Assembly (NCBI GenBank): GCA_049999805.1
Contig: JBNGIO010006336.1
Coordinates: forward strand, 1-64,000
Direction of reading: 5' to 3'
Source of the DNA: Folioceros fuciformis
Taxonomy: Eukaryota
DNA: 64,000 nt
A model generated the notes under the pieces. It saw nothing but the letters and a program-made list of their open reading frames with translations. It was not told the origin of the DNA and made no database searches. This document shows positions 5,282-33,583 of this stretch, one piece after another. The stretch's first letter is position 1. Each line of letters starts with the position of its first letter. The position numbers were made by a program, and so were the translations under genes.

Positions 5282-5400
5282 CAAGAAGCAGATGAGCGCA
5301 GAGCTCTTTCTTCAAGGAGCAAGAGGCAGATGAGCGCAGAGCTCTTTCTTCAAGGAGAAAGAGGCAGATGAGCGCAGAGCTCTTTCTTCAAGGAGCAAGA
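5282..5400. repeat. 3x tandem 38-bp repeat overlapping the stop codon of the DUF579 gene
   Basis: The unit gcagatgagcgcagagctctttcttcaaggagcaagag starts at 5288, 5326 and 5364. Confidence 0.95.
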
Positions 5401-10488: not shown

Positions 10489-12244
10489 TTACTTATGGGG
10501 TTGTTTCCTCTTCCTTCCGTTGTATGCTGCAGCATAAGTTGAGTGAACAAACGGGGAGTTCGACAGCTCCCGAGGGATGGGGGTTTTGGATGCCCTAAGA
10601 ATATCAATCAGACCTCTGAAAAGAGCCTTGTCGTCGTTGTTGATGAACGCAAATGCTGAGCCAGGCTTATTCATGCGAGACGCCCTGCCTATCTGATGTA
10701 CATATTCTTCAAGAGAATGGGGCATGTCGAACACTATTACCTGACGGACCCGGAGAAGATCCAGACCACGACCGAGAACTCCTGTTGCTACTACCAAAGG
10801 GATCTCACCATCCAGAAACGATGCGAGGCTCTTCCTCCTCTCCTGCGTCGATTTCTCCCCGTGAACAGCGGCAGTTTTCAAGCCGGTGACTGTCTGCACC
10901 GATTCTGCCAGGAGTTCTGCCCCCGGCCTGCTATGCACAAACACCACAGCTGGCGGCATGAAGTGCTTGGGGCTGGCAAGAATGTCAAACAACTTCTTCT
11001 TCTTCTGATTGGATTCTACCCAGATGATCGTCTGGTTCACAGCGCTACTTGGTAGACCAGGGTTCCCCACAGACACTACAACGGGAGAATTTAGCAGCCC
11101 ATGAGAGAGCTTTGCAATGGCTTGAGATACGGTGGCCGAGAACATGAGAATTTGAGGCTGAGACAGCGCAAGCATCAGCTGCGTGACTTGGTCCAGAAAG
11201 CCCTGTTCCAACATGCAATCCACTTCATCCAGCACAAGCATGGAGATGTCCTCTAGCTCCACCGGATGCTTGGTTAGAAGATCGACGAGTCTTCCAGGTG
11301 TTCCCACTACCAGCTCCACCCCGTTCTCGATCCTGTACACCTGCTGAGGCAGAGCATCTCCTCCAACAACCAGGGCGGTTTTAAAGCGCAAACCCTTCGC
11401 CAACACCTTAGCTTGGTCTTCCACTTGCCCGCACAGTTCTCTAGTAGGCGTAAGCACCAGAGCCAAAGGCCTATTATCGTGGCGACACAGCTTCAGCATG
11501 CGGATCCTACAGCTTCTCTCAATGATTGGCAGCAAGTACGATAATGTCTTCCCTGCTCCGGTTGCCGCAGATACAAGCAAGTCTCGCCCAAGCAAAGCCG
11601 CAGGGATAGTCTGCATCTGCACAGGAGTCGGACTCTCGTATCCTGCCCGTTCCAGGTTCGCCTGAAGCAGCGGCAGAAACCTGCAGTCGCAGAAGGCCAG
11701 AACAGGGGCCGGAACATCACTCCCTTGCACATCGATGTCGCCTGCTTTCCTGAGCAAGTTGACCTGCTCCTCGTTCACTTGACTGCGCATGTCAGGCTGC
11801 CATCGCAACTGCGCTGCCCGGATTAGCACGGGGCCGGCCTGGTCTTTAACCCTGACGCACTCGTCAGGAAGCACAATTCTCCGGCCCGGCAAACAAGGCC
11901 CCGGCTCTGGCTCGGAGACACGAGGCAGAGGCGCCAGCGGATTCTCGGCTGGCGGAGCCGATGATTCTTTCCGCAAGCGTAGAACCACCTCCTTGCACTC
12001 CAAGCTGCAAACATCATCATCCGTCTCGTCACATATGTACTCTCCATACCGCTGGCAGACAACACAGCAAGGTTCCCCTGGAGCTGGACTCCTTTGATCG
12101 GCGCTCCTTGCAACGACGCCATCTGCAGCCAAGGAGGAAGCGCAGCTTCAGGCACGGTAAGGCAGGAAATCGCTCCCGCTAGAGCCGGCGAAGTCGAGAA
12201 AAGATAAACCAACTCAATCAACCTGACGACGGGGTTGAAAGCAT
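10489..12244 (-). CDS. RH41: DEAD-box RNA helicase with N-terminal zf-HIT (RH41/DDX59-like); 22-nt first exon (12244-12223) plus long exon (12122-10489)
   Basis: CVVCQRYGEYICDETDDDVCSLEC zinc finger, Q motif PTPVQ, ATGAGKT, PTREL, TPGRL, DEVD, SAT, RGLD and QIGRASR. The ORF-track start is TTG; an ATG exon MLSTPSS joins in phase through a 100-nt GT-AG intron at 12222-12123. Confidence 0.93.
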
Positions 12245-12452
12245 CTCGCTCCAGCTAGCCGCACAAGCGTTTTAGGGCTTCTTCACGCTCTCTGCTCCCA
12301 GAATCACTCTATGAGTGATGTACAATCTTCAGTATTCATGAACTATCGAGTCTAGATATGTAACCGACGGAGCTGGCTTACGGCGGATGTGAAGGTGAGG
12401 GAGGCCGTGAAGTGCGAGACCTTGTGCTAAGCTAGCAACCAAATCTATATCA

Positions 12453-13990
12453 ATGGCGTGGCCCGTGTTAAAGAAGGGCTTGGGAAGAAGACTGTTTAGA
12501 TTTTGTTGCCTCAGTTTTATAGTAGCTCTGGTGTTGTCAGCCATATGTCTGCTGCAGTCCATGAAATTCTACTGGAGAGGAAGTAACGCCAATAGGAGCT
12601 CCTTATGGAATGGAAGCAGGAGGTCAGAGTTCGGCATCCTTGGAGTTCCTTGGTGTAGGTCTCTCTCTTCACCTCTCGAAAGCTTCATGATTTGCTCCAT
12701 TTGCGGGTTAAGCTCGCTATCAGGGCGGGGCGTGCTGCTTGTGCAGAACCAAGCGAGGGCTGCACGTGGAGTGGACGAGAGAGGACCTGTTGCAGAGTCT
12801 CAGCACGTTTGTTGCTCTGTACCAGAAGCGTCCTGTGAGGAGCAATGTCCATGGCATGCAATTCGACCACTCTTTCGGGCTTTGGTTCATGGCATCTTGG
12901 CTCAAGCCTGACCTTATCATAGAGAGTGGGGCATTGAAAGGACATTCCACATGGGTTCTCCGACAGGTATGTTATGTTGTGACTCTACAGATGTAGTGTA
13001 GCCTCTTCAAGCTGTCACTGTGATGAGGATGGTCATCAGGAAGTTGACACGCAGTTGTGTGCACTATTCGGGGTTCCAGGCCAGACCAAATGTGCCCATT
13101 GTTACAATTAGCCCTGTTCATCCGCGTAAGTATGCGAAGAAGGGCGATGGATATGTGGACTCCAACTGTCAGTATTTTTGTGGCTCGAAATTTGTGGATT
13201 TCGGGAGAATCGATTGGAATAGGGTGTTGAAGGAATATAAAATCCAAGACAAGGGAAAGGTGCTTGCCTTTTTCGACGACCACCAGAGCGAGTTGAGAAG
13301 GTGGTGTTCTTCACGTTTGTGTGTTCGCTGGAGAGAGACCACTGTCTAAGCCAGCTCACCTGCTCAAATAATTGGCATTGTTCAGAGCGAAGGAAGCACT
13401 TGCTGCAGGGTTCCAGCACCTCGTGTTCGAAGACAACTATGATACTGGCACAGGCGACCATTATTCTCTTCGCCAGATTTGTGACCAGGTTAACGTCAGA
13501 GGTAAAATGGAAATTCGTGCAACGTTTTTCCTAGCTTTGCATCCATCTTGTATGTTAAGGCTTATGTTTCTGTGCACCAGGCGTAGGGCACAACTGCCAT
13601 ACAGATGGTGATGAAGCACGCATACGAGCTATGAGGGCTGCCACATGGGAGAAAGCAGTGGAGATCAAGGAGCTGTGTGGACCGGGGGATGCATGGTGGG
13701 GAGTCAGGGGTGAGATGAGGGATAATTTCAATCACGCTTCTTCCCCTATATCAGCAGCCCAGCATCGCCACAATTCCCAGTTTTTGGAGTCAGTGCTGGA
13801 CCTGTACTGGGAGCTTCCTCCCGTGGCTGGTCCGGGTTTGACCAAGCAGACCAGATATGACCCTGCTAGGACCGGTCTGCCCCTCATTGACGACCAGGAC
13901 ATGCCTTCATTCCGACTGCATGGACTCGCCTCACTTAATCTCTCAGTTTTCAACGGCTACACACAAATGGCTTATATCAGGATATCCTGA
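12453..13990 (+). CDS. Uncharacterised membrane-anchored protein with SAM-methyltransferase-like motifs; 5 exons
   Basis: N-terminal TM helix. The exons give F...Y..RP..SN..GMQFDHSFGLWFMASWLKPDLIIESGALKGHSTWVLRQ, FFDDHQSEL.R..EAL.AGFQHLVFEDNYDTGTGDHYSL and YWELPPVAGP. GT-AG junctions are near 12658/12746, 12966/13080, 13300/13386 and 13501/13581. Confidence 0.85.
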
Positions 13991-14416
13991 AGTCCTTTCG
14001 TCATTAGAATGAGTTTGTCCATGGAACTATGGAGAACTTCCGCGTCATAGAAATGAGTCGTGGGAGCCAGTCTGATCGGCTTCGTTAAAAAAATGGTATT
14101 TTGAATATTGTGAACAAACCCAGAGGGATCTTAAACAAGGGTTCTGAGTCTCCTGACCGATCACAAGTTCTTCAAATGTCATGCATAAGCCAACGGACGG
14201 CGAGTGAGCTTTGCTCTAAGGAATAGCGGAGGAAACATGAGCATGTTACAGGACTTGGGAGCACGATAGAGAATCCGGTAATGAGAATTCCCTGAATGTA
14301 CCGCACCAAGAAAATTCCCCGAAGAAGAATATTGTTCTAGGCAATAATTCTCGAGTCCGAGAACTCTAGCTAGAACTATACAAGCACCAAACGTGCTAAC
14401 AGGTTGAAAGCACACA

Positions 14417-17400
14417 TCATCCCGGCGATTGGGCCTTCAACGTCTCCAATTGATCCAACATTGTTTTATCACCTGTCGCAACCTCCGTGAGGAAGACAAA
14501 TCGGGACGCTGGGTCTTCCACTTGGTACGATATGAGTTGCAGAAGTAAGATCTTGTGCGACCACATTCAGGATGTTAGCTTGTGTTCCACGATCCAAGGC
14601 CCATCATGTCATTCATTCTTCAAAGACAATCAACACGTTCATGCAAAGTAAACGTCTGTTTGGAGGTGTGTTTTTTATGTAGAGCAAAAGAAACGGCAAT
14701 CGAAACACACCTGCTGTGAGGGCTTCCGACGAACACTGCGTAATAAGGATTTTGCGAACTTCGTCTTGGTTATGGCATCCTCTCCCGCTGATTCCCCAAA
14801 AACGAACAGTGCAATATGATGCAACACAAGGAAAAAACTCATGGAACCAAGGTCGGCTGCTTTGTCCAGTTTCCCAAAAGTCCATGCTGACAAATACGCA
14901 TCCAGTACCTTCGTGTTTCTCTGTACCAATCGAAAACAACCTCCAGGGTTAAAACACAGTATCCCAGCTGTTACTGATGTTTCCTGAAAGATCTCAGCAA
15001 TCACAAACAGTAAATTCAGATCGACGGAGTCCAAACAACAGACCTCCACAGGATAGAGATATCCTGCTTGATTGCCACAACAGTGTCTAAGCGGAGGAAG
15101 AAGGTGCAAAACTTGAGATTCAGCCAAGTGTTCCCACATTGAAAGTCTAATTGGATCAGGAACATCACGCCGCAAGTAAAACGCTACCTGGCGTGCAAAC
15201 ACAAGGGCTCCGTAGGACTCAGCTGAAAAGTTGTCAGTCAGTGTTTCAACGAACTGTGTGTAGTTGTTATCTACAGCATATAGATCAAGAGGATCTCGAA
15301 TTGCTGAAACTTTTGAAAACCCTTCACCATGACCACCTTTGACTTGACCACACTTGACTTCTTTGAATAGAGATGATCCATCAAGCTGTAACGCATACAT
15401 CTCCTGGAGAGTGCAAATCAGACCCTGGACAGAGTCTTGTAAGAAAGTGTGACCTCCCAGCACAAACACGGTGGACAGCGCATGGACCTTTCTGGCCATA
15501 CTTGTATGAAAGGATCCAGAGTCAGCAGGCCTTCGTGCACTGTCTAACATAACTTCCACGGCCAGAAGGAAAAATAGACCAGAGCCAATGACCTCATCCA
15601 ACTGTTGAGCCTTTTGAGCACCGATACCATGTTCTACTTCCTGGCCAGTGGACCCGGAATTTCGCCTTTCGTGAAGCTTCTCCACATTCGTAGCAAGGGG
15701 GCTTTGAAACCAATACACTGGGAGTGGCAACCTTTGTCCAGCCCATTCCCTCCCCACGCTATTTACAATTTCATCTCTAACCTTGGTGTTGTCCTCGTCT
15801 ATCCTAGTTAACTTGTGGAGTGTCCCGTTCTTTTGGTCCTGAAGAGTCTTCTTGTCTTTTCTCCATTTCTGCGACAGCCAGGTCTGTGTAAAATGCTGCT
15901 GAAGAACGTCACTGATCCTTTTGACATCCAATTGTGCCACGTAGTTTACTTGATCTATGTCGTCCTGCAAGTCCTTCAATTCCGCACAAACCTTCAACGC
16001 TGATAACACACCCTTCGACACGGATGTCAGGGCTTCTTTATCCAGCAAGATAGAAGAAAGCACTTTCTTCAAAAAATCTCCCTCACCGGGCCCAGCGGTC
16101 ATGACAACGCCCAAGCCCACCTGAAATCTCCATGAAAGTTCAGTAGAAGGCTCGCATACAGTTCCGACCGAAGATTTATCCTGCTGGACAGGAACTAAGT
16201 CTTGTTCACGAGGGTTGCCCAATCCTGATGTTGTCACTAGAAGGTCCAATGCTAAAACAGCAGTTATCTTGGCTAATAAGAACCGTTTTGACCAAGTTCC
16301 TCCACCAACCGATCCCCATCCCAGTCCAATGCCAGGAGCTGGCCCTCCTCGACAATGGAACTCAATTGAACTCAAAAACGTCTGATTTAAGATGACCTCC
16401 CCTCCACAGCAATCCAGCAGATACCTCAATTCCTGTTCACCACTTACCAGAAGTCCGCGAGACAGTATCTCGTGTGCTCTCGTCTGACTTCCTGAATCCG
16501 GCTGTGGTGAGGATGCCTGTGGTCTTGCCTCTCTAATCAGATGATCAACCACAGTTACCAGGCGCACTATACCATGCAGACAGCTAGTAGCTATTATCGA
16601 AGTGTCATAATCAGATGACAATCTTAGTTTGTACAAATATCCTGCAAGACAGTGTCCTTTTCTCTCAGCAGCCCCGGGAGCGAAGTTGAGAAATTTGCCG
16701 TTCACGATTGACAGCCCAAGCTGTGGCAGAAACGTTGGCAGCCATGGAGCATACGAGTTTTGTTGACTTGCACGAGCCCAAAGGTGACCCATGTCATTAA
16801 GTGGCAATATTCTTCCACAGACTGTCGCAAGAAAATGAAGCACAGCAGCCAGTGCACCCAAGAGGGTTTGATTGCCCTCACCAGTGAGGACATCTTCAGG
16901 ACTTACCTTGTCCACGTGGACATCCTGTTTGTCCCATAGAGCAAGAAGGGTATCTAGATGGTGAGAAGATAACCAATCAAGAGCTGTCTTGACCAAAGGC
17001 ACTGCAACTGCCCACGACCAATTTGTATGTATGGAAAACTCATCACTGGAAGCCGTTCCTCCCCCATTCCAATGGAGAAGAGGAAGAGTCCTTGCTATCT
17101 TCTCCAGCAAAGTGAATGATTCGCGAGTCAGGCAAAACGCAAGAGAGTTCCCCTTACTGTTATACTCCTGTTCTGAATAGGGGGCCAGCCAAAAGCAAAG
17201 AGCCGGATAGAAATCTGAAAACAAAGAGATCCCAATCTGATGGGAAATACAAACCCTCCACAGCCGAAGAGCCTCTATCAAGGTGGGGCCTAGCCCACGG
17301 AGGTATTCTTGGCCGACTCTTGAACGAGATGGCAGAAGATAGGCCTGCTGAAACAATTCACTTTGTGCCACCTGCAAGGCGCCTGACTCAGCAAATCTGA

Positions 17401-19978
17401 CACAGTTCGACCGGCTCGCCTGGCTGAGGACCTGCCAAGGTCGCCCAGATCACATAGGGTGACAAGAAATAGAAACTCAATGACAAATATGCAAGCTTCA
17501 CATCAAACAACCCGAAGCAATGCAACGCCAGCCACACCTTCAGTAGCTGGATAGCTCTTGTCCGGGCAGGCCGGATACCAAGCACCATATTCTCATCACT
17601 TGCCAGGAACTGCTGGATGATTGTATCCATCAACCTTGGACACTTCATCACTGCTTCTGCACCTGCAGGTGAATGATGGGCTAGCGCTATAACAACGACC
17701 AGTAAGGATTCTTCCGCTGCCACATTTTTCTCCACCTGAATTCAGAGCACTAGATCATTATCTGCAACTACTAGGGAAACGTAAGCATAAACACAAAACT
17801 AGCAGTACTTTACAACAACAGCGTTGAAGGTGCAGTCACATCTACATATCCAGAAGCAGTTGAATGACCCTGTACGACGCAGTACCTCCAAAATATAACG
17901 AATTCTAGGTAAGATGCCCATCCTGATAAGGGCAGCAGCTACATCCTTCTCCGCAACTGTTTCATGATCTCCCACTGTGTCTTGCCTATCTTCGGGTAAA
18001 GACTGATTGTCTGTAGCAACAGACATCTCACTAGGCTTCACATTGTACTTCCATCGGCCACCACCCATGCAACCCTCATCTAGCTTTGTTTGCCTTCGGA
18101 AGACAGGAGCAGTATACAAAGGTCTTTCACCAAGCCAATAAGTCTACAAAGATCACCACAAGCAAGGATAAGACGCGCCACTTGCAGGTGCTTCACAGCA
18201 TGCAGGCAGAGACATGATCAAACTACCACAATTCTTGGAAGAAGGCAAGATAACCTACCTCTTGGACATCAAAAAAACTCTCATTCGCGGCACAACTCAG
18301 TAAGGCCTGTAGGGCTCTAGCACACGCAGACACAATAGTGGCATACTTGTCGTCCAAGAGGTATCTCAGAGTGAGAGTGAGTCTTGGCTCAGGCCCTACG
18401 GCGTACGTCCACACAGCCTGCCAATCAACCGAGCCACAGCTACCGGGAACCTCTGCTTGTTGCAACCCAGATAACGCGTTGCTGAGTAGAGAAGAAAGAA
18501 GACGAAGGGCCATAGTTCTCTGCCCAGGAACCTGCACAACCAAAATAATTACGATCAGTGTGACACCTTGGGCTCTTGCCTGCTCGACAAAAAAACAACA
18601 GAGTGAAAATGTGTGCTAACCGTGCTGCGAGCTAATGCAGCAGCTTCCAAAATGGTGTAGCCAACACCCGCAGGATCACCCTCAGTTCTTAGAAGGTCAC
18701 GTTCCGCCACCGTCTGCGCATCTCCCTTCAGCTCACGTATCCGATCTGTGAGAAGCAGAAACTCACAACTTCAGGACCGGATGGCCAACTAACCTCTGAA
18801 GTGTACAGCTTGGGAGACAAAAACCAAGCACAGATTAGCGATGATTACCAGGATCTTCGGGGTCATAGTTCCCGACAGCAACAACCCGCCCATCCAGATC
18901 AAATTTCAGCAGCCTCACAGCATTGACTCTCGCAGACCACGAGGTCCACAACGAAGCAGCATCGACAGTTCGGGAACTCCCTAGGTCCACAGACTTGGCA
19001 CCGACTCCAGACACGTTGGCATGCCGTATTCCTGAGCTGCCCAAGAACCCAGCTTCCGACGATCTGGGACTCCTTTGGTCACTCCCACCAGATTCCCTCC
19101 CCTCTCGCAACTTCCTCTCCTTCTCTTCACCTCGTTTTCTCAGCATTTCCAGGATCTCAGGCCGGATCCTGTCCTTCAGTTCCAGCCGAGCCTCCTCCAA
19201 TTCTGAAGCGCACATAGAGAGCACGGCGTCTCTATTCTCACGATCAATGGAGTCCAGGCTAGACTCGACAGGCACCCTTCCTAAGCCCCGTTTCAGCTCC
19301 ACTCCATCTTTCTCGCCCGTACGGTGAGAATTGACCAAACCAGGAGTATGCACAGGCTCCTTTGCAGGCTTCCCCACTTCATGCCCACCTCTCGTCACGG
19401 TCTTGACCCCTTCGTCCCCACCACGACTATCCTTGACGAATCTCCCAAAACGCGAGCTGGGGTTCTTCCGCAGCAGGGGCTGGGCGTACTTTGCATGCTC
19501 ATCTACTCCCACTTCCTCCTCATCCCTCCCCGCCTCAGGGGGCTGGTAAACCTCTTTCACGGCAGGTCGCCAGCGCTGGGAACAAAAGCCACGCCAACCC
19601 ATATGAGCTCACAAACACGGACACCGGCAACGCGACAGATGCGGGTGTCCAGTCCTGCTGCTCAACAGAAGCAACGCCAACCGTGCAACCTCAAGACCAT
19701 GAACACCAGAGTGCAACAACAGATGCAAAAAGCATTAAACAAAGCAGTGTCCAGGCCAATACCGGCCCCTCAGACCGGTGCCTGGCCTGGGGAAAAGGTA
19801 TCACTCTCGGACCAGGAGCCGCAACCGGAGAGGGCTCTGAAGCCTTCCCTTCAAACCCCTTCTCCTGAATCTTGCCCAACACCTCCAGCACCACATAGTT
19901 GCCCTCTGAAACACTTTCTTCGGTTCCAGCTTCCCCCACCCGCCCCACACTCAGCTCTTCGACATTTCCGCTCGACAT
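14417..19978 (-). CDS. IYO: MINIYO / RNA polymerase II-associated protein 1 (RPAP1), multi-exon
   Basis: G.IQEKG, PFP.ARHRS.GP, IDRENRDAVLSM...ELEEA..EL..RI.PE.LEMLRKRG (RPAP1_N), VAERDLLRTEGDPAGVGYTI.EA..L.RST..VPGQR.MAL (RPAP1_C), WKYNVKPS, GGPAPGIGLGWG..GGG.WS, EWAGQRLPLP.YW and F.AESYG...FARQV. The last exon is inferred. Confidence 0.92.
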
Positions 19979-22015
19979 GACGCTGGCATTCCCACCTCGT
20001 CCCTTCGCAGAGAGCTCAATTCCACCACTAGCAAGAGAGCTCCCTCCAGCTTACACTCTGTGTGCGATTTTCAGACGCAATGCAAAGCCGACCTTCAACG
20101 ATTCTTCCCCAAAGGAGCTCTTCGCCTCTAAAATGCCTGAGGCTCCTGCCAGCTCTCCCGTGGGCATACATGCTTAAATACGGAGCGCAAGCCGAGATCA
20201 AGGGCGGCCAAGTCTTGGCAAAGATAGAGCGGGAAGCCGAGAAATATCACATTCGTAAGGCAGATGTAAATTGGAAACCGAACGTGAAAAGCAAACCAAG
20301 CTCCAGCGACCCGGCTCTCCGCTACTCGACTCAGCTCGACCCAGACCGGCCATAGCACGGCAAAGGGAAGCAAAAATCGAGAAAGGGAGGTGGGATCGGG
20401 GAAGGGAGGTCTTCAGACACCATCGCAACGCCAGAAACAAGATGACGAACACGGCACGTGGGGCCAAAGTCTGGAGGCTAGTTTCAGCACAACAGAAAAA
20501 TCAGCCACTGGTACACGTGGCAGAGTTAGGGTTCACCGCCCCACCTGGGCTTCGTGACAGGTACATGGTGATGGTCTGAAAGTGGCTTCAAAAAATATCG
20601 TACTTTCATTCGCAGAGTTGTGCTGGAGGCAGCAACCTGTGAGAGGCCGCCATGTCGCCAACAGACTGATGCATTACGGAGGCAAGGCGAGGAATGCACG
20701 GACTACCGGTTTCAGACGCGATTGAGACGGGACGACTCTCTACCGGACCGGTCTGGGTGTGGTTGAGGTGACGACTCCTGCATCCGTCGCCCACGGTTGT
20801 TGCATTGCGTGAGCAGGAGTCAGATTGCTTGGAGGCGAGAGTAAGCTTCGCACCGAATTCTTCCTTGTTTTGGATCAAGAACTTGCTTGGCGTGCGAGCA
20901 CCGACTCTGCTACGTCGACCTGGAATTGGCACTACGTGCTATGTTGGCCAGAAGGTAACATACACAACATCCTTGATTTGAGGTTGTTTGGAAGATAGGA
21001 AGACAGCGAGAGGAAGGATGTTTGGAAGCTTGTTGTATGGACCTAAGACCTAGACGCACAGCTGAGGCATGATATACCGCACACGGATCAACCACAAGAA
21101 CAACGTAAGCGGCATGCATGCATGTTTGTGGTTGAGAATGTGAGCATTCCAGCATGGATTCTGGAAGCTGTCGTTCCTCGAGGCAGGCAGGCGGCGTTGG
21201 CGAAAGTAGGAGAGAGGGGAAGGATATGTCTTGCGGTTGGGTAGCCAACTCCCGAGGAACCAGCAGCAAGGTCGTGGCATACGACAGGTGTACTCACATG
21301 CTTCCTGGTGTTGAGTGGACTCCGCCATTTACTTCGCGAAACATTATGTTATGGCCCCCAGGTAGGTGTGTACGGGGATGCAATGTGCGGGGACTGCCAC
21401 ATCCCCGCTGGCGGCAAAGACTTCTCTTGAGGCTTGTGGAGTGCGGCTTTCTGACTGGGCATTCTGTCAGCCACTGTTGGCCTCATCACGATGATGCGTG
21501 GCGGCAACGCAGTGTTAGCCTGCAACCTGCCATCGCTACTGGTGTGGACGCCTATGTGTTCGACCTCCACTTTTTGCGTGCTGGTCCCCACTGCTAGCGG
21601 GAGACGGAAGTCTCTGGGAGCAACGCGTGGATGGATTCCTGTTCCACGATCTGTGCCTGACTTGGGAATCAAACACGGCAACCTTCCGCCCGTTTGTCTG
21701 CTTCGAGCACATAGCCTTCCTGAGATTTGCCCAGGGCACGTATGCATTTCTGGCGACTCAATCAGGGCATGGAGGATGGTATTGTGTCCACGACAGACCA
21801 GCCCACCTACTGCTCCTCATCAGCTTCACTGCATGAGACGGCGTCAGTTGCCGAACCCCTCGTCTTCCTTGGGACGTATCGAAGATGGGTAACGTCGACA
21901 GCCAGCCAACTGAAATGAAAGGAAAGGCACATGAAATGGCTAACAAACGTGTCGTAAACCTGGACCTACTGCGTTCCCGATCGGACTGCGGGAGCCAGCC
22001 CTCGTTCCTCGTCCC

Positions 22016-25000
22016 ATGCCAGCAACGTCCTCTCGGCGGACCGGGACACGCATGCTCTTCTCCTTGGCGAGGTCCTTTTCCTCCATAGCTCCGTCCTCGA
22101 GGTCCTTGTCACCGGTGCACCCTTTCTGCCAGCCCACACGCGGTCAGGGTTTTGAACTGTACCGGCATCTGAGACAGACGGCGGTGAAGCCGACCAACCG
22201 TGTGTTGGTCGCAGTCCTGAAGGCATGCGGGGGTGCAGCAGATTTGGCAGCCGGGAAGCAAGTCCATGCCGACATTCTGGGAAGATTCTTGAATCCCAGT
22301 TTGGGCGTCGGGAATGGGCTGGTGGAGATGTATGCCAAATGCGGGAGCTTGGAGGATGCCCGCAGAGTGTTTGACACATTGCCGTCCAGGAATGTGGTGA
22401 CATGGAATTTCATGATCGCAGGATATGCCAAGCATGGGCTTGGTCGGGAGGCGCTTTCTCTTTATGAGAGGATGCAACATGAGGGCATCACTCATGCCAA
22501 CGACGTTACTTTTGTCAGCCTCCTCAGAGCGTGTGCCAGCATCGGAGCATTGTGTGAGGGCAAGAAGCTTCATCTTCAGATTCGGGAAAGAGAACTGGAA
22601 GCCAATGTGATTGTAGGGAACTGCTTGGTGGACATGTACGCCAAGTGTGGGAGCGTAGAGGATGCTCGCAGGCTGTTTGACAGACTGCCCGTGAAAGATG
22701 TGGTCACATGGAACGCTATGCTGGCAGGGTATGCTCGGTACGGGCTCGGTCACGATGCGCTCACTCTCTTTGGGAGCATGCAACGGCATGGCATCGTTGT
22801 TGCTGATAAGGTTACGTTTGTGTCCCTCTTGAAAGCATGTGCCAGTGTGGCAGCTTTAAGCGAAGGGAAGGACCTGCATTTTCAGATTCAAGAACGAGGA
22901 CTTGAGGCTGACGTGGTCGTGGGTAGCAGTCTGGTGGACATGTATGCAAAGTGCAGCAGCTTGGGAGAAGCCCGAAAGGTGTTTGACAGTTTGCACGCAA
23001 AGAATCTGGTGACATGGAATGCAATGCTCGCAGGGTATGTTCAGCATGGGCTTGCTGAGGAAGCGCTTGCTCTGTATGCAAACATGCAACAAGAGGAGGA
23101 TACGCGGGCAGCACCAGATCATGTTACGTTTGTGTGCCTCTTGAAAGCATGCGCAAGTGTGCGGGCCCTCCATGAGGGCAAACAGTTTCATCTGCAAATT
23201 CGAAACCGAGGGCTTGAATCCGACCTAGTTGTGGGCAGCAGCCTTCTGGACATGTATACGAAGTGTGGGAGCCTGGAGGACGCCCGCAGAGTGTTTGACC
23301 GACTGCCAGTAAAGAATGTGGTGACGTGGAATGCCATGATCGCAGGCTATGCCCAGCAAGGCCTCGTTCGAGAAGGTCTCATACTGTACAAACGGATGCA
23401 ACAAGAAGGCATTTTTTCAGCTGATTATGGTCCGCTTCTGAGTCTCCTGAAAGCATGTTCGAGGGATGGAGGAGGACTGGGTGACGCCAGGCACCTGCAC
23501 ACCTTTGTCCAGGAAACAGGGCTGGATGTCGACGTTGTTGTTGGCAGGAGTTTGGTGGACATGTATGCAAAGTGTGGCAGCGTACAGGATGCACGCAAAG
23601 TCTTTGACCAGATGCCATCGAGAGATGTGGTGGCATGGACTGTCATGATTGCAGCATATGCTCAGCATGGGCTCGGTGCAGAAGCTCTCAACCTTTATTC
23701 TCGCATGCAGCTAGAAGGTATCAGTCTGGCTGATAATGTAACGTTTGTGTGTCTCCTGAAAGCATGTGCCAGCATTGGCCCTTCAGCCTTACATGAGGGG
23801 CAACAGTTACATTTGCAGATTCAAGAGAGAGGGTTTGACGCATACGTAGCTGTGGGCAGCTCTTTGGTGGACATGTATGCCAAATGTGGCAGTTTACGTG
23901 ATGCTCGAAGGGTATTTGATGGATTGCTGGGAAAAGATGTGGTGACGTGGAATGCCATGATTGCAGGATACGTGCAGCATGGCATCGGCCAAGAAGCCCT
24001 TGCTCTGTATGCAAATACGCAGCGGGAGGGCATTGATCTGGCTGACAATGTTTCATTTGTGTTGCTCCTGAAGGCATGTGCCAGTCTTGGTGCTGTGGGG
24101 TTATGCAAGGGTAAGGAGCTTCATGACAAGATTCGAGAAAGGGGACTGGAAGCTAATGCTGTCATTTCCAGTGCCCTGGTGGATATGTTTGCAAAGTGTG
24201 GCAGCGTGCAAGAAGCCCGCACCATGTTTGATAAAGTTCGTGCAAGACACGGAGTGACATGGAATACCATGCTTGCAGCCTACGCTCACCATGGCCTTGT
24301 TAACGAAGCTATGGCACTGTACACAGAAATGCCACAGGATTGTGTTGGCCTATCAACGTTCGCATGCCTCCTGAAAGCATGTGGCAGTGCCGGAGCCATT
24401 CATCAGGGAAGGCAGCTCCATTTGCAGCTCCAACACAGAGGACTGGATGATGACCTAGTAGCTGTTACTGCCTTGGTGGACATGTATGCAAAATGTGGAG
24501 CTTTGGATCATGCCCGCAGAGTGTTTGACAAGCTACCATCAAAGAGTGTGGCGGTGTGGAATGCCATGATTTCTGGCTGCGTCCAGTATGGGAACGGACA
24601 AGAGGCCCTTCTTCTCTTCTCAAGAATGCAACAGGAAGGCATTTGTCTGGCCGATATTGCTTCATTTGCTCAGCTCCTTAACGTATGTGCTAGCCTTGGA
24701 GCCCTGAGCAAAGGCAGGGAGCTTCACTGCACAATTCAAGAACGAGGACTGGAGAGCGATGGGATTATTGGCAGCAGCTTGGTGGATATGTATGCAAAAT
24801 GTGGCGCCTTGGATGAAGCTCGCTCTGTATTTGACAGATTGCCAAGCAAGGATCTTGTAACCTGGACGGCCATGATCTCGGGATACGATCAGCAAGACCT
24901 TGGTCACGATGCTCTTCGTCTTTTCAGCCGTATGTGTGTGGATGGCATTCATCCAACCGACCATGTGGCATTCATCTGCCTCCTGAGAGCCTGCGCCAGC

Positions 25001-26074
25001 ACTGGAGCTCTGCATCAGGGGAGGCAGCTTCATTCTCTGATCCAGGACGAAGGACTTGAAGCCAACGTTTTGGTCGGCAGCAGCCTTGTCGACATGTATG
25101 CAAAGTGTGGCAGCATGGAGGATGCGCAGGAACTGTTCGACAGACTGCCGACGAGAGATGTGGTGACTTGGACTGCTATGCTGAATGGTTATGGGCAGCA
25201 AAATGACGTGGAAGCTGCAATCCAGTGTTTCAAAGCGATGCAGCACCACGGAGTTGAGCCCAACGGTGCCACTTTCCTGTGCCTTCTCGTGGCCTGCAGC
25301 CACGCGGGTCTCGTGAAAGAGGGTCAGCAGTATTTCAAGATGATGGAAGAGGCTCACGGCATCACACCGTCTGTTCATCACTATAATTCCATGGTCGATC
25401 TTCTCGGCCGATCAGGAAACCTTGACGAAGCAGAAAACATGCTGGAGAGTATTCCTATCAAGGACAACGATGTTGGGTGGACATCTTTGCTCAGTGCGTG
25501 TAAAGCCCATGGTGATGTAGGGCGAGGAGAGAGATGTTTCAACCGGCTTGTGGAAATGGGACCTGGAAACGCACCCGCTTATGCACTCTTGGCTAGCATC
25601 TACTCCCATGCTGGGATGTGGGGTGATGTAGAAAGGATAGAAAGCCTGAGGAAAAGTGCAGGAGCTTACAAAGTGCCTGCAAGGGCTTGCATTGAGATCA
25701 ACAGCACAGTGCACAAGTTTATTGTTGGGGGTGGTAGAGACGACACGTCCTCAAAGCTTAAGAGTGTTAACTCAAGGTTGAAGGAGGGAGAGGGCCATGC
25801 ACCTCAAACACAACTGCTTGCCAAGCCAGAGTCTGACACAAGGAACGAGGATACCTTATGTGGCCATGCTGAGAAACTAGCTCTGGCCTTCGGACTCCTC
25901 AACACTGCAGAAGGCACCTCCTTGCTGGTGACAAAGAACCTTCGAATGTGCGATGACTGCCACAACGGCACCAAGATCATGTCCAAGCTCGAGAAGCGAG
26001 AGATCGTCGTAAGAGATGCCCACCGGGTGCACCATTTTGTAGATGGCTTGTGCTCTTGTGGGGATCGTCACTGA
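22016..26074 (+). CDS. PLS-class pentatricopeptide repeat protein with E1/E2 and variant DYW (DYW:KP, 'DRH' terminus) domain; organellar RNA-editing factor
   Basis: Uninterrupted 1352-aa ORF with 10 S motifs (LV[DE]MY.KC) in P-L-S triplets, then P2-L2-S2-E1-E2. The C-terminus is KVPARACIE...HAEKLALAFG...LLVTKNLRMCDDCH...HHFVDGLCSCGDRH. The Ser/Arg-rich N-terminus resembles a targeting peptide. Confidence 0.97.
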   Translation: MPATSSRRTGTRMLFSLARSFSSIAPSSRSLSPVHPFCQPTRGQGFELYRHLRQTAVKPTNRVLVAVLKACGGAADLAAGKQVHADILGRFLNPSLGVGNGLVEMYAKCGSLEDARRVFDTLPSRNVVTWNFMIAGYAKHGLGREALSLYERMQHEGITHANDVTFVSLLRACASIGALCEGKKLHLQIRERELEANVIVGNCLVDMYAKCGSVEDARRLFDRLPVKDVVTWNAMLAGYARYGLGHDALTLFGSMQRHGIVVADKVTFVSLLKACASVAALSEGKDLHFQIQERGLEADVVVGSSLVDMYAKCSSLGEARKVFDSLHAKNLVTWNAMLAGYVQHGLAEEALALYANMQQEEDTRAAPDHVTFVCLLKACASVRALHEGKQFHLQIRNRGLESDLVVGSSLLDMYTKCGSLEDARRVFDRLPVKNVVTWNAMIAGYAQQGLVREGLILYKRMQQEGIFSADYGPLLSLLKACSRDGGGLGDARHLHTFVQETGLDVDVVVGRSLVDMYAKCGSVQDARKVFDQMPSRDVVAWTVMIAAYAQHGLGAEALNLYSRMQLEGISLADNVTFVCLLKACASIGPSALHEGQQLHLQIQERGFDAYVAVGSSLVDMYAKCGSLRDARRVFDGLLGKDVVTWNAMIAGYVQHGIGQEALALYANTQREGIDLADNVSFVLLLKACASLGAVGLCKGKELHDKIRERGLEANAVISSALVDMFAKCGSVQEARTMFDKVRARHGVTWNTMLAAYAHHGLVNEAMALYTEMPQDCVGLSTFACLLKACGSAGAIHQGRQLHLQLQHRGLDDDLVAVTALVDMYAKCGALDHARRVFDKLPSKSVAVWNAMISGCVQYGNGQEALLLFSRMQQEGICLADIASFAQLLNVCASLGALSKGRELHCTIQERGLESDGIIGSSLVDMYAKCGALDEARSVFDRLPSKDLVTWTAMISGYDQQDLGHDALRLFSRMCVDGIHPTDHVAFICLLRACASTGALHQGRQLHSLIQDEGLEANVLVGSSLVDMYAKCGSMEDAQELFDRLPTRDVVTWTAMLNGYGQQNDVEAAIQCFKAMQHHGVEPNGATFLCLLVACSHAGLVKEGQQYFKMMEEAHGITPSVHHYNSMVDLLGRSGNLDEAENMLESIPIKDNDVGWTSLLSACKAHGDVGRGERCFNRLVEMGPGNAPAYALLASIYSHAGMWGDVERIESLRKSAGAYKVPARACIEINSTVHKFIVGGGRDDTSSKLKSVNSRLKEGEGHAPQTQLLAKPESDTRNEDTLCGHAEKLALAFGLLNTAEGTSLLVTKNLRMCDDCHNGTKIMSKLEKREIVVRDAHRVHHFVDGLCSCGDRH

Positions 26075-27996
26075 TCAGCTTCTGATGATAGAAAGGTCCA
26101 CAAAAATCTCTAGAGCCTCCCTTGCGTCCCGCCATAGAGTAATTTGCCACGCCGTAAAAGAAATGTCTTCACAGACGTGGGGCCTCGTTTCGCTGCCATT
26201 GCCAGCCTGGCCTGAAAGTCTTTACAGCCTTTCCTCCTTTTTTGCTCTGCCTTTGAAGAAAGTCTTTCAGCCTCAGCCATTCCCTTTCTCGCCCGCCTCC
26301 TTTTCCTCTCCTCGCCAAGCTTCCCCTCGCAGACCAAAGCGATGCTGTGCTGTGATCCTATATTCCGTTGCCGAGAACTTCACAGGGAGCCTGCGTAGTT
26401 AAACTCATGTTGGCTATCTGCTTGGCCCCTTCATCTCCCAACGTGTCTGGCAACACCAGCCTTTCTCCTCTGTTGTGGAGGTTTTGTTGTCACCGACACA
26501 GTTGGGTGATGAAGCTGCTAAACAGCTATTTGACATGACGAGCACCTCGACCAGACGTGCCAGACGCTCCCCAGCTCCTTGCAGCTGGTTTCGCATCCTC
26601 GCATCTGTGGTGAAGTTCGGTGTCTGCGCTCTGATCCATCAAACGTTAGTCCGCATCTTGAGAAGGTGTTGTCGGTTCGTCAGAGACTGTTTCCACGAAA
26701 TTCCTACAGGGACTTGTTGTAGCCACCCTGCCATCTCACTGCAACTGCTTCTTCTGTGCAGGATTTGCTACCTGCGATCAACTCAATCGTGCGAGGCTCA
26801 CGCTTTTCAGGCTTGGTCAGGGCAGGACGCACCTTCAATAAAGCGCTGTCGTTTTAAGATCTGCACTGTTTGGTGTGGTTCTTAGGTTCTCTGCAGAATT
26901 CTCAGACGTTTGCAGAGCACAGATTGTTTGGTTGGCAAGCATGTAACAACAAGCTTGCATGGTGTTTTGGGCGAACATAATCTGCGTCACAAGCCCGAGC
27001 ATGATGCATCTCGTGGCCTTTCTGTGAATCCCGTTCCTACAATCTAAAGCAGGGAACAGCGGAAGCTCCCCAATACAACACAATCCTCACACGAATTCGC
27101 GTACTGCTGAATCCGAAAACAATAATATCGGGAATGGAAAACTCCTTTCAACGAGGCTGTGTCGGCCAAAATAGAGACCTGGGGGACCTGTGTAGGCAGG
27201 GCAGCGTGAGAAGGGAGACAATTCAAATATTTACGGACTTGTATGGATCAGCCGCAATCCCAAAGGCAAGATTGTCGAAGCCACGCGAATAAGCGGGACT
27301 TTGGAAAGCAGGGCAAGCAGAGCAGGACATGGCGCGGAGAGCTACCAGTGATGAGGTGAGTACTTACAATGATGGCGGAGGAAGGTGGGAATCGCAGCCT
27401 CGATTACAAAATGGAAGTACGCCATGCGAGGTATCATTCTTTGCCAGAGTTCAGTAAACCAACCTAAGTAAAAGCACCGTCCCTCGACCAACTCCCACCC
27501 GCTGTCCAAGCATTTGGTAGCAAAAAGGTTGAATGTAAGCAAATCGCAAGCATGGCAAGGAGAGGGAAGGGAAGCGAGGTGCGGAACGCGAGCAGGTAGA
27601 GCCTAAGAGCAGGGTTATGCCTTGTCTAATATATCTTTGTCTTCTTCAACCCGGTACATACTGTATTCTGAGCCATTGGCGGCTGCAATAAAGCCTTACT
27701 GAGTTCCTTGTTGCCATTTGGCTCTCTCTCAGCGGAAGGAAGCTCGCAGCCTCAGCTTCGCAGCTTTCTAAGAAGCTTCCATTCTGGTGCTCCTGCGTCC
27801 TCTCGCTGGTCCATGCTCGTCCTGTACCAGTCGCGTCGTCGGAGAATCTTCTGCATGCTGCGCTCTGTTTGCCAATTGCTTTCTGCCGAGAAAAGCACGT
27901 CGCTTCATTTGCGTCATCACCAAGAGAAAGGAAAACAGAGCAAGCCAAGCCACGCAGAGCAGAGCAGACAAAGAGCAGCGCTGAGCGGAGAAGAAG

Positions 27997-28413
27997 ATGA
28001 AGAAGCTGGCAAGAGCGAAAGGCAAGGACAGGCAGGCCAGCAGCTCAGCTACTGGAAGCATCCAAGATCCCGATTCTCACGAGGATGACACCTCCACCTC
28101 CGCTCAGGTGACTGGCATACCCGCCAATTCGATCTCCATGTACGCGCGCTTTCACTTGGCGCCTTGCTTGGAGCTTCCTGTGTTGCATTTTTCACAATTC
28201 TGCAAGCTTCTTCTAACAAGACCGCAACTCCGGCTTGTGCAGACGAGAGCATGCGCGCCGCATAATTCCAACTCGCATTTGGTGCACTACTCGGACAGAA
28301 GCGAGTTGAGGCGCATCTGCGTGGTCTGCAGCAAGCGGCAACACTTCTACTGTCCGTCGTGCAACAGCTTCATGTGCCTCGGCCCCTGCTTTGTCAAGCA
28401 TCACTCCGGATGA
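27997..28413 (+). CDS. Small Cys/His zinc-finger protein resembling the piggyBac transposase C-terminal Cys-rich domain, copy 1; exons 27997-28107 and 28243-28413 (93 aa)
   Basis: HL...RRICVVC-x7-CPSC-x4-CLGPCFVKHH. The exons are near-identical in protein to copy 2 while the GT-AG-bounded interval between them is unrelated. Confidence 0.82.
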   Translation: MKKLARAKGKDRQASSSATGSIQDPDSHEDDTSTSAQVTGIPANSISMYARFHLAPCLELPVLHFSQFCKLLLTRPQLRLVQTRACAPHNSNSHLVHYSDRSELRRICVVCSKRQHFYCPSCNSFMCLGPCFVKHHSG

Positions 28414-30375
28414 GCTGAGGATTCAGGCTGTTAGCGGCCAATGCATCCGATTCTTTCCTCTTCCGCGTCCTCCTCCTGGCACTGCCTGATCAGCGAGGCT
28501 AGGCACTGGACGCCCGCCCCGAGCATCGGCGCATAGCAATTTTGGGTACGCATTCAATTTCTATCCAATCTTCTGGAGAGGGAGGAGCATCCAGAGAAGC
28601 ATTCGAAATGTAAAAGTCAGTATACCTTAGAGCCACCATTCCCGCCTCGTGCAGGCTCAGGCGTCCTGGCCTTCAATCCGTCGGAGTAGGACAGCACGAA
28701 TCATCCTGTTCAGCAGCTGGTACCAGTGCTGGAAATGGTGCGTCCTCATCCACAACCTTGTCCTGTACATTCATTCCTCCACTCTCGATGCTTCATATTA
28801 CGAAGAAGCAGTAGGCCGTCCACCTCAAGCGCAGCAGTGCAACACTTTCTTTTAGCTCAAGATTGTCAGATTTTATTTCGTTCGTGGTGAACTTGTGACA
28901 TTCGTATCTCGATTCTGTTGTCTTGGCAATGCCTTCCTCTACACAAGGGCCATGGCAGTTGTCTCTGAGTTGCGATCTGGCATTGGTTACTATTATTTTT
29001 TGTCCTGAGGACTCAGGACGGTGTGGCTCACGACACTCGCATTCACAGCTGCTCGCTGTGTCCACACAAATCGCGAGCACTCCTTGTCATCTTTGGACAC
29101 ATGTTGGCACTGCCAATTATCTACAATATACTGTCCCCTCCTGGATACGAGTCTATCCATGCCACCAGCTGTTGTAACAGCGTGCAAAATATGCAAAAAC
29201 CAAAGGTGGTAAGGTAACGCATGCACTTGGGGGCTATACAAAGGGTAGGTGTCCAATCGGGCAGCGGCGGGCATTGATGAAGACGAGAATATTATGTTTT
29301 GGCTAAATTTATAATAAGCAGGGCTGATGCTGAGCTTGTGGGATGGCAGCCTGTAAGTGGCCGCTGGCAAAAGAAGAGGCAAAGGGCAATCATCACGCTG
29401 CTCCGTTCACGTTTGCTCTTAGCGCCTCTCGGCCTTGGTACGCGCCCTCATTAATTGTATTGTGGTCCCAGGCCCCTTAATTGTGCATGATTATCCTGCG
29501 GGCTTCCTTAAAGCCCTGCACATGTCTGCCAACAAACACCAACTCTTGTGTGTGTATCCAGATGCCATAGGAGAGCCCACTCAAGGTAATGTTTTGCTGT
29601 TGTAACTTCCTTCCCCGATAATCCAATTTGGGAGCTGTTCTTGATGTGTCAATGGCTGATTCTTGCAGGTAAGGTATGGCAAGCCGAGGACTCTTATTCA
29701 CTTTGCTCACACTAATGACAGAGACTTAAAATTGAGTGACTCAAATTGAGTGGCTTGAGTGGCGAGTGGTGGAATGGAAGGCAGGGGGGTTGGGGTGATA
29801 ACCGAGGCCCAGGCTTTAATGAGCACGCAACGGCATTTAGTGCAAGCAGGCTAAATATACATACGTATAAAGAGGAAGCATTCAGCGGTGCCGCTAATCC
29901 TGCTGATATTGTGGCAGCGGGAGGCAGCCCGAATCGGGACGCGGCCCAGTTTGGGCCGCGTTTCCGCCCACCTGCATCTGTCGTATGCGTGGGAATGGCA
30001 AGCAATGATGCAGCAATCCAGGGAGCGGGGTCACATGCGCAGCGGTGGGCTCGGCCCACAGTTGGCCGCGCCTGGACGCAACCAGTTTCCCTTCCACGGA
30101 CTGCCACTCGCTCGCTCGATCACTCATTCGAGGTAAGGTGGATTGTATACAGCCCCGCGTGTACCCGACTCACATTCGCCCTGCCCCCTTTGCCCACATC
30201 AATTCCCGCACCACATGTTTCTGCCGCGCGCTCCACCCTGCGCTTTTCGCACTATTGCACCCTCGCCCGCTGCACTTGCCTAATAACCAGCCCTCCCTGC
30301 CTTTGGCCCTGCTATGTCACTCTCTCGCCGGTACATGAGGCCCCTCCCTGGTAACCACCACCGTCTCTTTCCGAA

Positions 30376-30420
30376 CCACACCACACCACACCACACCACA
30401 CCACACCACACCACACCACA
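30376..30420. repeat. (CACAC)n microsatellite
   Basis: About 9 tandem ccaca units. Confidence 0.95.
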
Positions 30421-30859
30421 TCGCCCGGCAAGGATCATAACACCAACTTAATCTGAAGCCGAACGAACCCTGAATGCCTATTTAACCACTCCGATTATGA
30501 ATGAGATAATGGCTTGGAAAGTGACGACCAAAAAGAGGAAGAAAGAGAGATTTATTTTTGGAGAGATACACTTTTTGGAGACATAAGGTTTCTCATCTTA
30601 ATAATTATTTAGAAGGCTATCACATTTGTCTAATAAGAACTCCATTATTTAGTAAGTGTGTTTGTCAGTGAACTCATGAAGCAAAATGATCTTATAATCT
30701 CCTTTGATAGATGCTACTCAGGAAGAATGATAGATTACAAAATCCACAATACTTCAAGACCTAATTCGATGTGTGGACAGATGAAGACAAGCAACTTTGT
30801 AGAGGGTTTTTGTTGTTGTCTGGTGGTGTTGTTGTTGTTGCTTCTTTGTTTGAAATCAA

Positions 30860-30996
30860 GCTTACAAAGAGCAGAACCGGAATTGGATGTTGCTTTAACT
30901 ATTGTTGTTGCTTCTTTGTTTGAGATCGAGCTTACAAAGATCAGAGCGGAATTGGACGTTGAGCTTACAAAGATCAGAGCAGAATTGGATGTTGCT
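30860..30996. repeat. About 33-bp motif in 3 copies within an AT-rich block
   Basis: agcttacaaaga(t)cagagc.gaattgga.gtt occurs at about 30860, 30929 and 30962. Confidence 0.8.
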
Positions 30997-31528
30997 TGAA
31001 CTATTCTTGTCACAGCCCCGTTTCAATCATTCTTCAAGGCACACTCGTGCTACTACTATGTAGTGGACAAGTGGAAGGATGACAAGTTACTTAGTGGCCT
31101 AGTATTAGTGTCTGTACTATTGTTGCCGCACATTCATAGTCTGTGAGTGGAAGGATAACAAGCTCCTAGGAGGCCTTGCATTGGCGTTGTTGTTTCTATC
31201 CTTGTGTCTCCTAGTACAAGATTGTGGAAACAGAAGTTGTTGTGTTGATTGTTTTTGTCATTGCCTTGCTTCCATTGCCTCTAAAGCATCCTTCCAAGCA
31301 TACTATAGCTTCTCAATCACATCCAAAATTACAGTCCAAGCTGGTCTTGCCTCACAACACAAGGGTTGCTAAAATGTGAGTTGAAAAAACAATCCGTGTC
31401 ACAAGTTGTATAGAAGACGCATAAACAGTGGAGACGTAAGGAAGGAAGGATGGGGTTGGAATGTGTCCTACTTCATGGAGCTTCGTGTGTGTTGAGGTGC
31501 GCGGCCTGGTGGCTGGCTGGTCGGTGAG

Positions 31529-32491: not shown

Positions 32492-33187
32492 TTCCCGCTT
32501 CTTGGTGCCGCCACACAGGCTCTCTCTTTGTGTCCCTCTGAGCCAGCACGCCGTTCCGTTTGCCTGTGGCTGCTGGCTGTGCTGTGCTGTGGTGGAGCAG
32601 AATGGCCGTACGCGCTCCTGCCTGCTTCACGACGGGCCGGTGGGTGTGAAGCGCTTCGGGGGAGGCCTGTCATGCCCACAGTACCATTCTGCATTTCAAT
32701 ACGCGGCGGCTCATTTAAGACGAACTCAGCTCTTCGGCGGGTCGCGCGGGGCGTTGGAACTCGCTACGGCCTCCAACATCTTCTTCTTATTTACAACTTA
32801 CGCTCGCTACCTCCCCTCGCTCGCTGCCTTCACGCTCCGCGGCCCCCGCCACCGCTCGCCACCCCCAGCCAGCCAGCCAGCCAACTCCCTGCTGCGCCTC
32901 GCCTCTCTCGGAGAGCCGCCGCCCTGGGCTCCGCTGCCGCCCGCTCCCGCAGCCTCGCCTCGCCTCGGTCTGCTCTGCTCTGCTCTGCTCTGCCCTGTTG
33001 CTGCGCCTGCTCCTCACATGCTTCACGCTACTCATTCCTGACGCCACGCCACGCCTGCTGGCTTCCCCCTCGCGACGCCGCCGGCTTATCGGAATTGGCG
33101 CCGCTTCTTGCGCCCGCGCTCCACCTCTCCTCTGCACCAGCTCCTCCTCCAGCTCTGAAGTTGCTGCTGCCTCCAGAGTCTAGGAGG

Positions 33188-33583
33188 ATGAAGAAGTTGG
33201 CCAGAGCCAAGGCCAAGGACAGGCAAGCTACCAGCTCCGCCACAGGCAGCATACAGGACCACGACTCGCACGATGACGACTCCTCCACTCACGAATCCGC
33301 TCCGGTGATGTCTCAGTCTGCTCTGCTCTGCTTTGCCCTGCCCTGCTCTTTGTACCTCCGCTCTGCCGCGCTGCTCTCTTCTCATAATTCTCGCTCCGCT
33401 CGCCCTGCGCAGATGAGGACGTGCGGCCCGCACAACGTGAACCCGCATTTGGTGCACTACTCCGACAGAAGTGAGCTGAGGCGGATTTGCGTCGTGTGCA
33501 GCAAGAGGCAGCATTTCTACTGCCCCTCTTGCAACAGCTTTATGTGCCTCGGCCCCTGCTTCGTCAAGCATCACTCCTCCTGA
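33188..33583 (+). CDS. Small Cys/His zinc-finger protein resembling the piggyBac C-terminal Cys-rich domain, copy 2; exons 33188-33304 and 33413-33583 (95 aa)
   Basis: MKKLARAKAKDRQATSSATGSIQD... plus a zinc-finger exon identical to copy 1 over 44 aa. Homology to copy 1 starts exactly at this ATG. Confidence 0.82.
   Translation: MKKLARAKAKDRQATSSATGSIQDHDSHDDDSSTHESAPVMSQSALLCFALPCSLYLRSAALLSSHNSRSARPAQMRTCGPHNVNPHLVHYSDRSELRRICVVCSKRQHFYCPSCNSFMCLGPCFVKHHSS

Follow-up and report, generated by a model that had tools for sequence, protein, structure and literature searches.

Whether a native enzyme converts uridine to cytidine (U-to-C) in organellar RNA is the question raised by one gene in a 64,000 nucleotide (nt) stretch of Folioceros fuciformis DNA (assembly GCA_049999805.1, contig JBNGIO010006336.1, positions 1 to 64,000 of the forward strand; the whole stretch is termed the window). 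The gene is an intronless open reading frame (ORF) for a pentatricopeptide repeat (PPR) protein that ends in a variant DYW domain. To our knowledge, U-to-C editing is the sole natural route by which U becomes C in RNA, and it is under pursuit as a base-editing tool. An initial annotation of the locus placed a KP-type DYW domain at 25660-26074 and proposed an intact native U-to-C editor on the basis of five traits, namely a replaced PG box, an HAEK motif, the stretch LLVTKNLRMCDDCH, a short gating region, and a DRH terminus, all of which were present in the sequence. A feature of this kind does lie in that interval, although the reading frame starts at 25661 and the DYW domain proper covers 25673-26071. 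Judged from its sequence, the gene almost certainly belongs to the KP/DRH group, and a native U-to-C editor was the best reading of it, held here to be moderately probable.

Diagnostic Residues of the DYW Domain

The boundary between the E2 motif and the DYW domain, and with it the residue numbering, was taken from the designer KP proteins (E2 of 34 amino acids (aa) and DYW of 133 aa; PMC9478123). As a cross-check of the numbering, the KP6 residues L6, E64, L113, D116, I119, and F133 (PMC11845758) recur in the corresponding columns of a fern-like sister clade. Canonical DYW:PG domains have a PG box, HSE, a Val before CxxC, approximately 136 aa, and a DYW end, and at these points the window's domain has VPARAC, HAE, RMC, 133 aa, and DRH, respectively. 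Residues were tallied over 112 domains, comprising 22 of the KP clade, 6 of its sister clade, and 84 of a PG-box/HSE group. Eleven columns had a KP-clade consensus of at least 75% that reached at most 15% in the PG group, and the window carried the KP residue in 10 of them, the miss being K1. KP-type residues of the window include Ala3, which 95% of the KP-clade domains share and which is G throughout the PG group (100%); Ala66, shared by 91% of the KP clade and replaced by S in all 84 PG-group domains; and Met92, present in every KP-clade domain (100%), with V at this position in 63% of the PG-group domains. The replacement of Ser by Ala or Cys inside HxE is a published KP criterion (PMC11845758; PMC11332814), Met92 of KP domains corresponds to Val95 of PG domains, and DRH is a named hornwort KP subgroup (both PMC9478123).

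The string KVPARACIE, read by the initial annotation as the replacement of the PG box, is present as described, but its Lys is the last residue of E2 and the eponymous K1 of the KP type is a Val in the window. In place of the Pro-Gly pair, the window thus has P2 and A3 as in KP domains, preceded by V1. The K1 residue occurred in 18 of the 22 KP-clade members, with L, L, M, and T in the remaining four. The shortened gating region was visible as a four-residue gap at the "xHP" site in phmmer alignments to 9kfx and 7o4e, and the loss of three to four residues there (xHP) is a KP trait (PMC9478123; PMC11332814). A single residue, K37, is inserted in the gating-domain equivalent. Domain lengths were 132-133 aa in 18 of the 22 KP-clade members, a range that covers the 133 aa of the window's domain, and mostly 136 aa in the PG group.

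The deaminase zinc signature HxE(x)nCxxC was retained (H65, E67, C93, and C96), with E67, C93, and C96 invariant and H65 at least 90% conserved over the 112 domains. All residue columns conserved at 90% or more were kept, including H97, H120, C127, and C129, and the sole departure from such columns was the extra K37, where those domains have a gap. Lys88 and Met92 stand in the context LLVTK88NLRM92CDDCH, and K915, the counterpart of Lys88 in OTP86, is ion-paired with E894 (PMC7611903).

Phylogenetic and Profile Placement

Including that of the window, 182 proteins were gathered, 37 by a word-indexed search and the best 150 of 2338 by a full HMMER scan (27 matches at E<=1e-30), with six proteins common to both searches. 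After 26 partial sequences were dropped, 156 proteins with a near-full domain entered the tree, which was built in IQ-TREE under LG+G4 with a quick search over 140 columns. The window's domain fell inside a set of 29 starred rows with a Shimodaira-Hasegawa-like approximate likelihood ratio test (SH-aLRT) support of 96; 28 of these rows lacked the PG box and carried H[A/C/V]E, and the last combined KKPG with HAE. Within this set, an inner clade of 23 rows (support 75) held the window and displayed termini including DRH (five, with the window counted), GRP (four), DHH (two), DAH, DRP, and VDH, while the six-row sister clade had E-HAEK and D-x-F termini. The DRH/GRP clade also points to a probable hornwort source, hornworts being, along with lycophytes and ferns, a lineage with organellar U-to-C editing. 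Finer placement was poorly supported, with a value of 8 for the window's nearest fork and 91 for its four-row clade.

Profile hidden Markov models (HMMs) built without the window's own sequence scored the domain at 221.2 bits for the KP DRH/GRP clade (22 sequences), 174.0 for the KP sister clade (6), 165.8 for an unassigned group (43), and 157.1 for the PG-box/HSE group (84). Clustering with KP rather than PG domains had been set beforehand as the test of the annotated class, and both the tree and the profiles bore the KP assignment out, the KP and PG groups having been set by motif and tree from unlabelled sequences rather than by curated labels. The gene is a further example of the DRH subgroup of DYW:KP proteins, and the family, the subgroup, and the link to U-to-C editing are already in print.

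Predicted Fold

An AlphaFold2 model of the domain from a 46-row alignment had a predicted local distance difference test (pLDDT) score of 83.1 and a predicted template modelling (pTM) score of 0.77, with low confidence only in the beta-finger part of the gating region (pLDDT 51-69). Foldseek returned eight matches in the PDB at E<=0.001, of which six were DYW-domain chains, all of the PG type (9kfx_A, four of OTP86, and DYW1). The best was 9kfx_A (E=1.1e-14, TMq 0.87, root-mean-square deviation 1.9 Å), and OTP86 matched with a TM score of 0.77. The other two were chains of a bacterial cytidine-deaminase toxin. A sequence search of the PDB retrieved DYW chains at E=5.4e-42 to 8.4e-28, which represented three distinct sequences with PG-type motifs in the alignments shown. 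No KP-type structure was among the PDB matches found by sequence search or by Foldseek.

Gene Architecture and Expression

The ORF at 22016-26074 has no other in-frame start codon between the preceding stop and its start (Table 1). Pfam searches of the 1352 aa protein matched PPR families (PF01535, E=2.1e-149; PF13041, E=5.8e-138), an E_motif at residues 1165-1226 that overlaps E1 (E=1.9e-13), and DYW_deaminase at residues 1260-1350 (PF14432, E=3.3e-32), values well beyond those expected by chance. According to the Pfam matches and the motif table, P, L, and S motifs alternate and are followed by P2-L2-S2-E1-E2, the layout of a PLS-class PPR protein with E1 and E2; the segmentation was our own, anchored at conserved motif residues. 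Read by eye, the P2-L2-S2-E1-E2 module is similar to the designer-KP consensus (PMC9478123). The composition of the N-terminus suggests that the protein is targeted to an organelle.

Table 1. Positions of the editing-factor gene, its parts, and neighboring genes in the window.
Feature	Coordinates	Strand	Description and basis
PPR-E1-E2-DYW:KP gene	22016-26074	+	Intronless complete ORF, PLS class, 1352 aa, stop included (ORF list, translation)
N-terminus, 46 residues	22016-22153	+	Composition like an organelle transit peptide: acidic 0, basic 6, Ser/Thr 14
PPR tract, 33 motifs, residues 61-1151	22196-25468	+	L1-(S1-P1-L1)x9-S1-P2-L2-S2
E1 motif, residues 1152-1185, 34 aa	25469-25570	+	Segmentation; read by eye against the designer-KP E1 consensus (PMC9478123)
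E2 motif, residues 1186-1219, 34 aa, K last	25571-25672	+	Segmentation; designer-KP E2 has 34 aa and the end "...GA.K"
DYW:KP domain, DRH subgroup, 133 aa (V1-H133)	25673-26071	+	Assigned from PF14432, PDB sequence matches, tree and profiles, AlphaFold2 model
Variant PG box, V1-P2-A3-R4-A5-C6-I7-E8	25673-25696	+	K-VPARACIE versus PG-type K-xPGxSWIE
Gating-domain equivalent, H14-G64, 51 aa	25712-25864	+	Four residues shorter than OTP86 H837-G891, 55 aa (PMC7611903)
H65-A66-E67	25865-25873	+	Zinc-binding His, KP-specific Ala, catalytic Glu; context GHAEKLA instead of HSEKLA
Lys88, counterpart of OTP86 K915	25934-25936	+	Sequence, checked numbering
M92-C93-D94-D95-C96-H97	25946-25963	+	KP-type Met and CxxC zinc ligands
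D131-R132-H133 replacing D-Y-W	26063-26071	+	C-terminal GDRH, then stop at 26072-26074
IRX15/GXM family gene	5391-6410	-	Ordinary plant nuclear neighbor
DEAD-box helicase with N-terminal zf-HIT	10492-12132	-	Ordinary plant nuclear neighbor
RPAP1-like gene	12274-19575	-	Pfam RPAP1_N and TPR_RPAP1 on ORFs 14678-17377 and 18838-19602; exon structure from an X1 contig
Class 3 lipase	39256-40419	+	Ordinary plant nuclear neighbor
Glycosyltransferase family 90 (GT90)	42259-43419	-	Ordinary plant nuclear neighbor

Sequencing run X1 contained 0.99 of the gene's sampled words, with pieces at zero mismatches over 21813-22650, 23933-25122, and 25096-25975. A single X1 contig of 6865 nt joined five blocks of the neighboring RPAP1-like gene at 12963/13077 (GT..AG), 13298/13579, 14551/15044, and 17429/18849 with zero mismatches, and the DNA run X2 was continuous across these splice joints. 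None of the listed runs containing the gene was registered as RNA; X1 was taken to be RNA-derived because its contig splices the neighboring gene. Intergenic depth over 27216-31000 was 0-3.9 in X1 compared to 6-11 in X2, and since X1 pieces cover the gene while this depth is low, the data were taken to indicate transcription of the gene, its 5' untranslated region measuring at least 203 nt. A piece from a second organism (run X4) aligned over 25378-26213 and differed in 76 of 837 letters (~91% identity), and its five listed indels all lay 3' of the stop codon, so that the ortholog keeps the DYW:KP frame. The claim that the gene is intact therefore held on its complete ORF, its conserved residues, the RNA-derived contigs, and the frame kept in the ortholog.

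Within the PPR tract, the PLS triplets were 99-104 aa long with 46-67% protein identity to triplet 5. A recent internal duplication of triplets was ruled out, as TRF detected no tandem repeat at the DNA level in the gene. Seven of the nine P1 motifs (22397-24961) had 36 aa, one had 38 aa, and one had 33 aa; the 36 aa motifs carry an extra residue in the loop preceding L1, the published P1 consensus being 35 aa (PMC9478123). Triplet 7 (residues 715-813) was short at 99 aa and had the unusual specificity residues S/H and N/G. Antisense ORFs across the tract (e.g., of 226 and 239 aa) were regarded as incidental to the long sense frame. Summed contig depth over 22144-25313 reached approximately 1760-3940 in three runs, with hundreds of joints and loose ends between triplets. 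This depth and the chimeric joints reflect a PLS gene family so large, with members so alike, that short-read assembly breaks in the tract.

Candidate Editing Mechanism and Alternative Explanations

If the gene encodes a native U-to-C editor, its nuclear, intronless, and transcribed ORF would yield an organelle-targeted PLS-class PPR protein with a DYW:KP domain of the DRH subgroup, whose 33-motif tract would bind approximately 31-35 nt of one organellar transcript. Under the PPR code of fifth and last residues, applied to the P and S motifs and ignoring the L motifs, the predicted upstream element would be 5'-YYnUUnAUnAUnnGnGUnn(Y)n(A)UnGGnGAnY-3', with its last position at -4. That position would be taken by the S2 motif (register as in PMC9478123), bringing a uridine into the active site of the DYW domain, whose zinc center (H65, C93, and C96), together with Glu67 and Lys88, would carry out the conversion to C. 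Lys88 has been proposed as the nitrogen donor via a Schiff-base crosslink (PMC11332814; PMC11713852; PMC11845758) and U-to-C editing by KP2, KP3, and KP6 depends on it (PMC11845758). The statement in the initial annotation that the amino donor is unresolved is partly outdated by this model. The synthetic KP enzymes stall as RNA-protein crosslinks (PMC11332814), and an adduct of ~319 Da has been reported for KP2 and KP6.

Hornwort DYW:KP proteins comprise the DRH and GRP subgroups, from which the designers KP1 (DRH) and KP2 and KP3 (GRP) were derived; of the designers, only KP2, KP3, and the fern-based KP6 edited U to C, and HAA and AxxA mutants of designer KP enzymes were without activity (PMC9478123). 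Several observations weigh against a native U-to-C editor. KP1, built from 301 DYW domains that were mainly DRH sequences, showed 0% editing of C and U targets in three replicates each in E. coli Rosetta2 and HEK293T, and again 0% in supplementary-figure rows, among the 30 of 42 rows listed (PMC9478123). The activity of natural KP proteins was described as still unknown as of 2025 (PMC11845758), and a literature search with subscription journals outside its coverage retrieved no study in which a natural KP or DRH protein was assayed. Within the domain, the eponymous K1 is a Val, and PG-type domains conserve Lys88 to the same degree, so that this residue is non-discriminating. The target element is a prediction from the P and S motifs with the L motifs ignored. 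The residues known to bias KP6 are also mixed: the changes L6C, V17T, D47E, D116A, and I119V favor U-to-C editing and E64G, L113V, and F133H gave C-to-U-only enzymes (PMC11845758), and the window carries C6, A116, and V119 of the former together with G64, V113, and H133, all three of the latter, while I17 and Q47 match neither set. With both sets combined, the editing direction is unreadable from the sequence.

These positions bear directly on a KP-type protein that deaminates C to U in vivo, alone or besides U-to-C editing, by a zinc/glutamate hydrolytic mechanism, an explanation considered unlikely. Every residue for canonical deamination is present in the window, and KP6 edited in both directions in human cells and from C to U in vitro (PMC11845758; PMC11332814), but the window keeps Lys88, the residue that holds back C-to-U editing in KP6. 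Likewise, the three residues of the C-to-U-only KP6 variants, two of which (G64 and V113) the window shares with most of its clade, are offset by C6, A116, and V119, which made KP6 U-to-C-only (PMC11845758). KP domains have moreover been reported solely from lineages with U-to-C editing, a finding credited to Gerke 2020 and Gutmann 2020 (PMC11845758; PMC10030945).

The inactivity of KP1 suggests instead that DRH-type proteins may not be self-sufficient, acting as site-recognition factors that need a partner, cofactor, or organellar milieu, or having lost catalysis with RNA binding kept; this too was rated as having a low probability. KP1 remained at 0% in both directions in either of two hosts, and co-expression of MORF2 or MORF9 did not change this (one replicate each among the rows listed; PMC9478123), and the U-to-C editing of KP6 was not reproduced in vitro, with the synthetic enzymes stalling at the crosslink (PMC11332814). 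A consensus design may nevertheless fail for unrelated reasons, as was raised for KP2, KP3, and KP6 (PMC11332814), and the window retains all catalytic and zinc residues and its ortholog retains the frame, as expected under selection on an enzyme.

Given the inert DRH consensus enzyme and the window's combination of both sets of KP6 bias residues, native DRH proteins may also differ functionally from the GRP and fern KP proteins. They might complete the reaction and free cytidine only when assisted by an organellar partner or cofactor, or act as bidirectional editors set by context, a suggestion that is tentative and rather doubtful. That the gene is a non-functional remnant left by a very large gene family, open merely by chance, is highly improbable given its 4059 nt open frame, conserved residues, RNA-derived contigs at zero mismatches, and ~91% identical ortholog lacking indels in the aligned coding part, even with more than 1400 PPR proteins reported in hornworts (PMC10030945) and the heavy cross-mapping of family members on the PPR tract. 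A native U-to-C editor was thus retained as the preferred reading.

Genomic Context

The other genes identified in the window were consistent with a plant nuclear setting (Table 1). A second PPR/DYW gene or fragment was ruled out, with all tblastn matches in the window lying within 22307-26071. The long ORFs at 2295-4313 (+, 672 aa) and 32528-33583 (+, 351 aa) had no Pfam match at E<=0.001. A repeat was flagged at 30366-30430, where reads appear cut, and X1 depth was nil over 29118-31000.

Significance

The locus adds an example rather than a new kind of gene, hundreds of such domains being available from hornwort transcriptomes, including the 301 in KP1 alone. As an intact, expressed, and native DRH gene, it offers a usable test object for how natural enzymes complete the reaction, because only synthetic KP enzymes have been assayed, these stall, and the DRH design was inactive.

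Comparison with Known Systems

The canonical DYW:PG proteins with structures (Arabidopsis thaliana OTP86, 7o4e/7o4f, and DYW1, 7w86, and the synthetic PPR-DYW 9kfx) share with the window the fold (TM 0.71-0.87), the HxE...CxxC zinc site, the residues of the second zinc site, the K915-type Lys, and the PLS-E1-E2 layout. In contrast, the window has no PG box, an Ala in HxE, a Met before CxxC, a gating region four residues shorter than that of OTP86, and a DRH end, and scored 64 bits lower on the PG than on the KP profile.

The designers KP2 and KP3 (GRP) and KP6 (fern) are closer, sharing HAE, Lys88, M92, the missing xHP, and a non-DYW end, and GRP-ending and fern-like sequences fell in the same 29-row clade as the window. 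They differ in their termini, which are GRP or xxF compared to DRH, and G64, V113, and H133 of the window correspond to E64, L113, and F133 in both the fern-like sister clade and unmutated KP6. KP2, KP3, and KP6 are synthetic designs from consensus sequences, and U-to-C activity has been demonstrated for no other KP domain, whereas the window holds a native gene.

The closest system is the DRH subgroup (Gerke et al., 2020, as cited in PMC9478123) with its designer KP1, which was compared by module consensus and published traits. The window departs from it in V1 for the eponymous K and in the insertion at 37, and the best match to its domain region in the databases searched was only 66-67% identical. 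The length of 133 aa, xPAxAC, HAE, K88, M92, and the DRH end are common to both, and in the tree the window clustered with DRH- and GRP-ending proteins.

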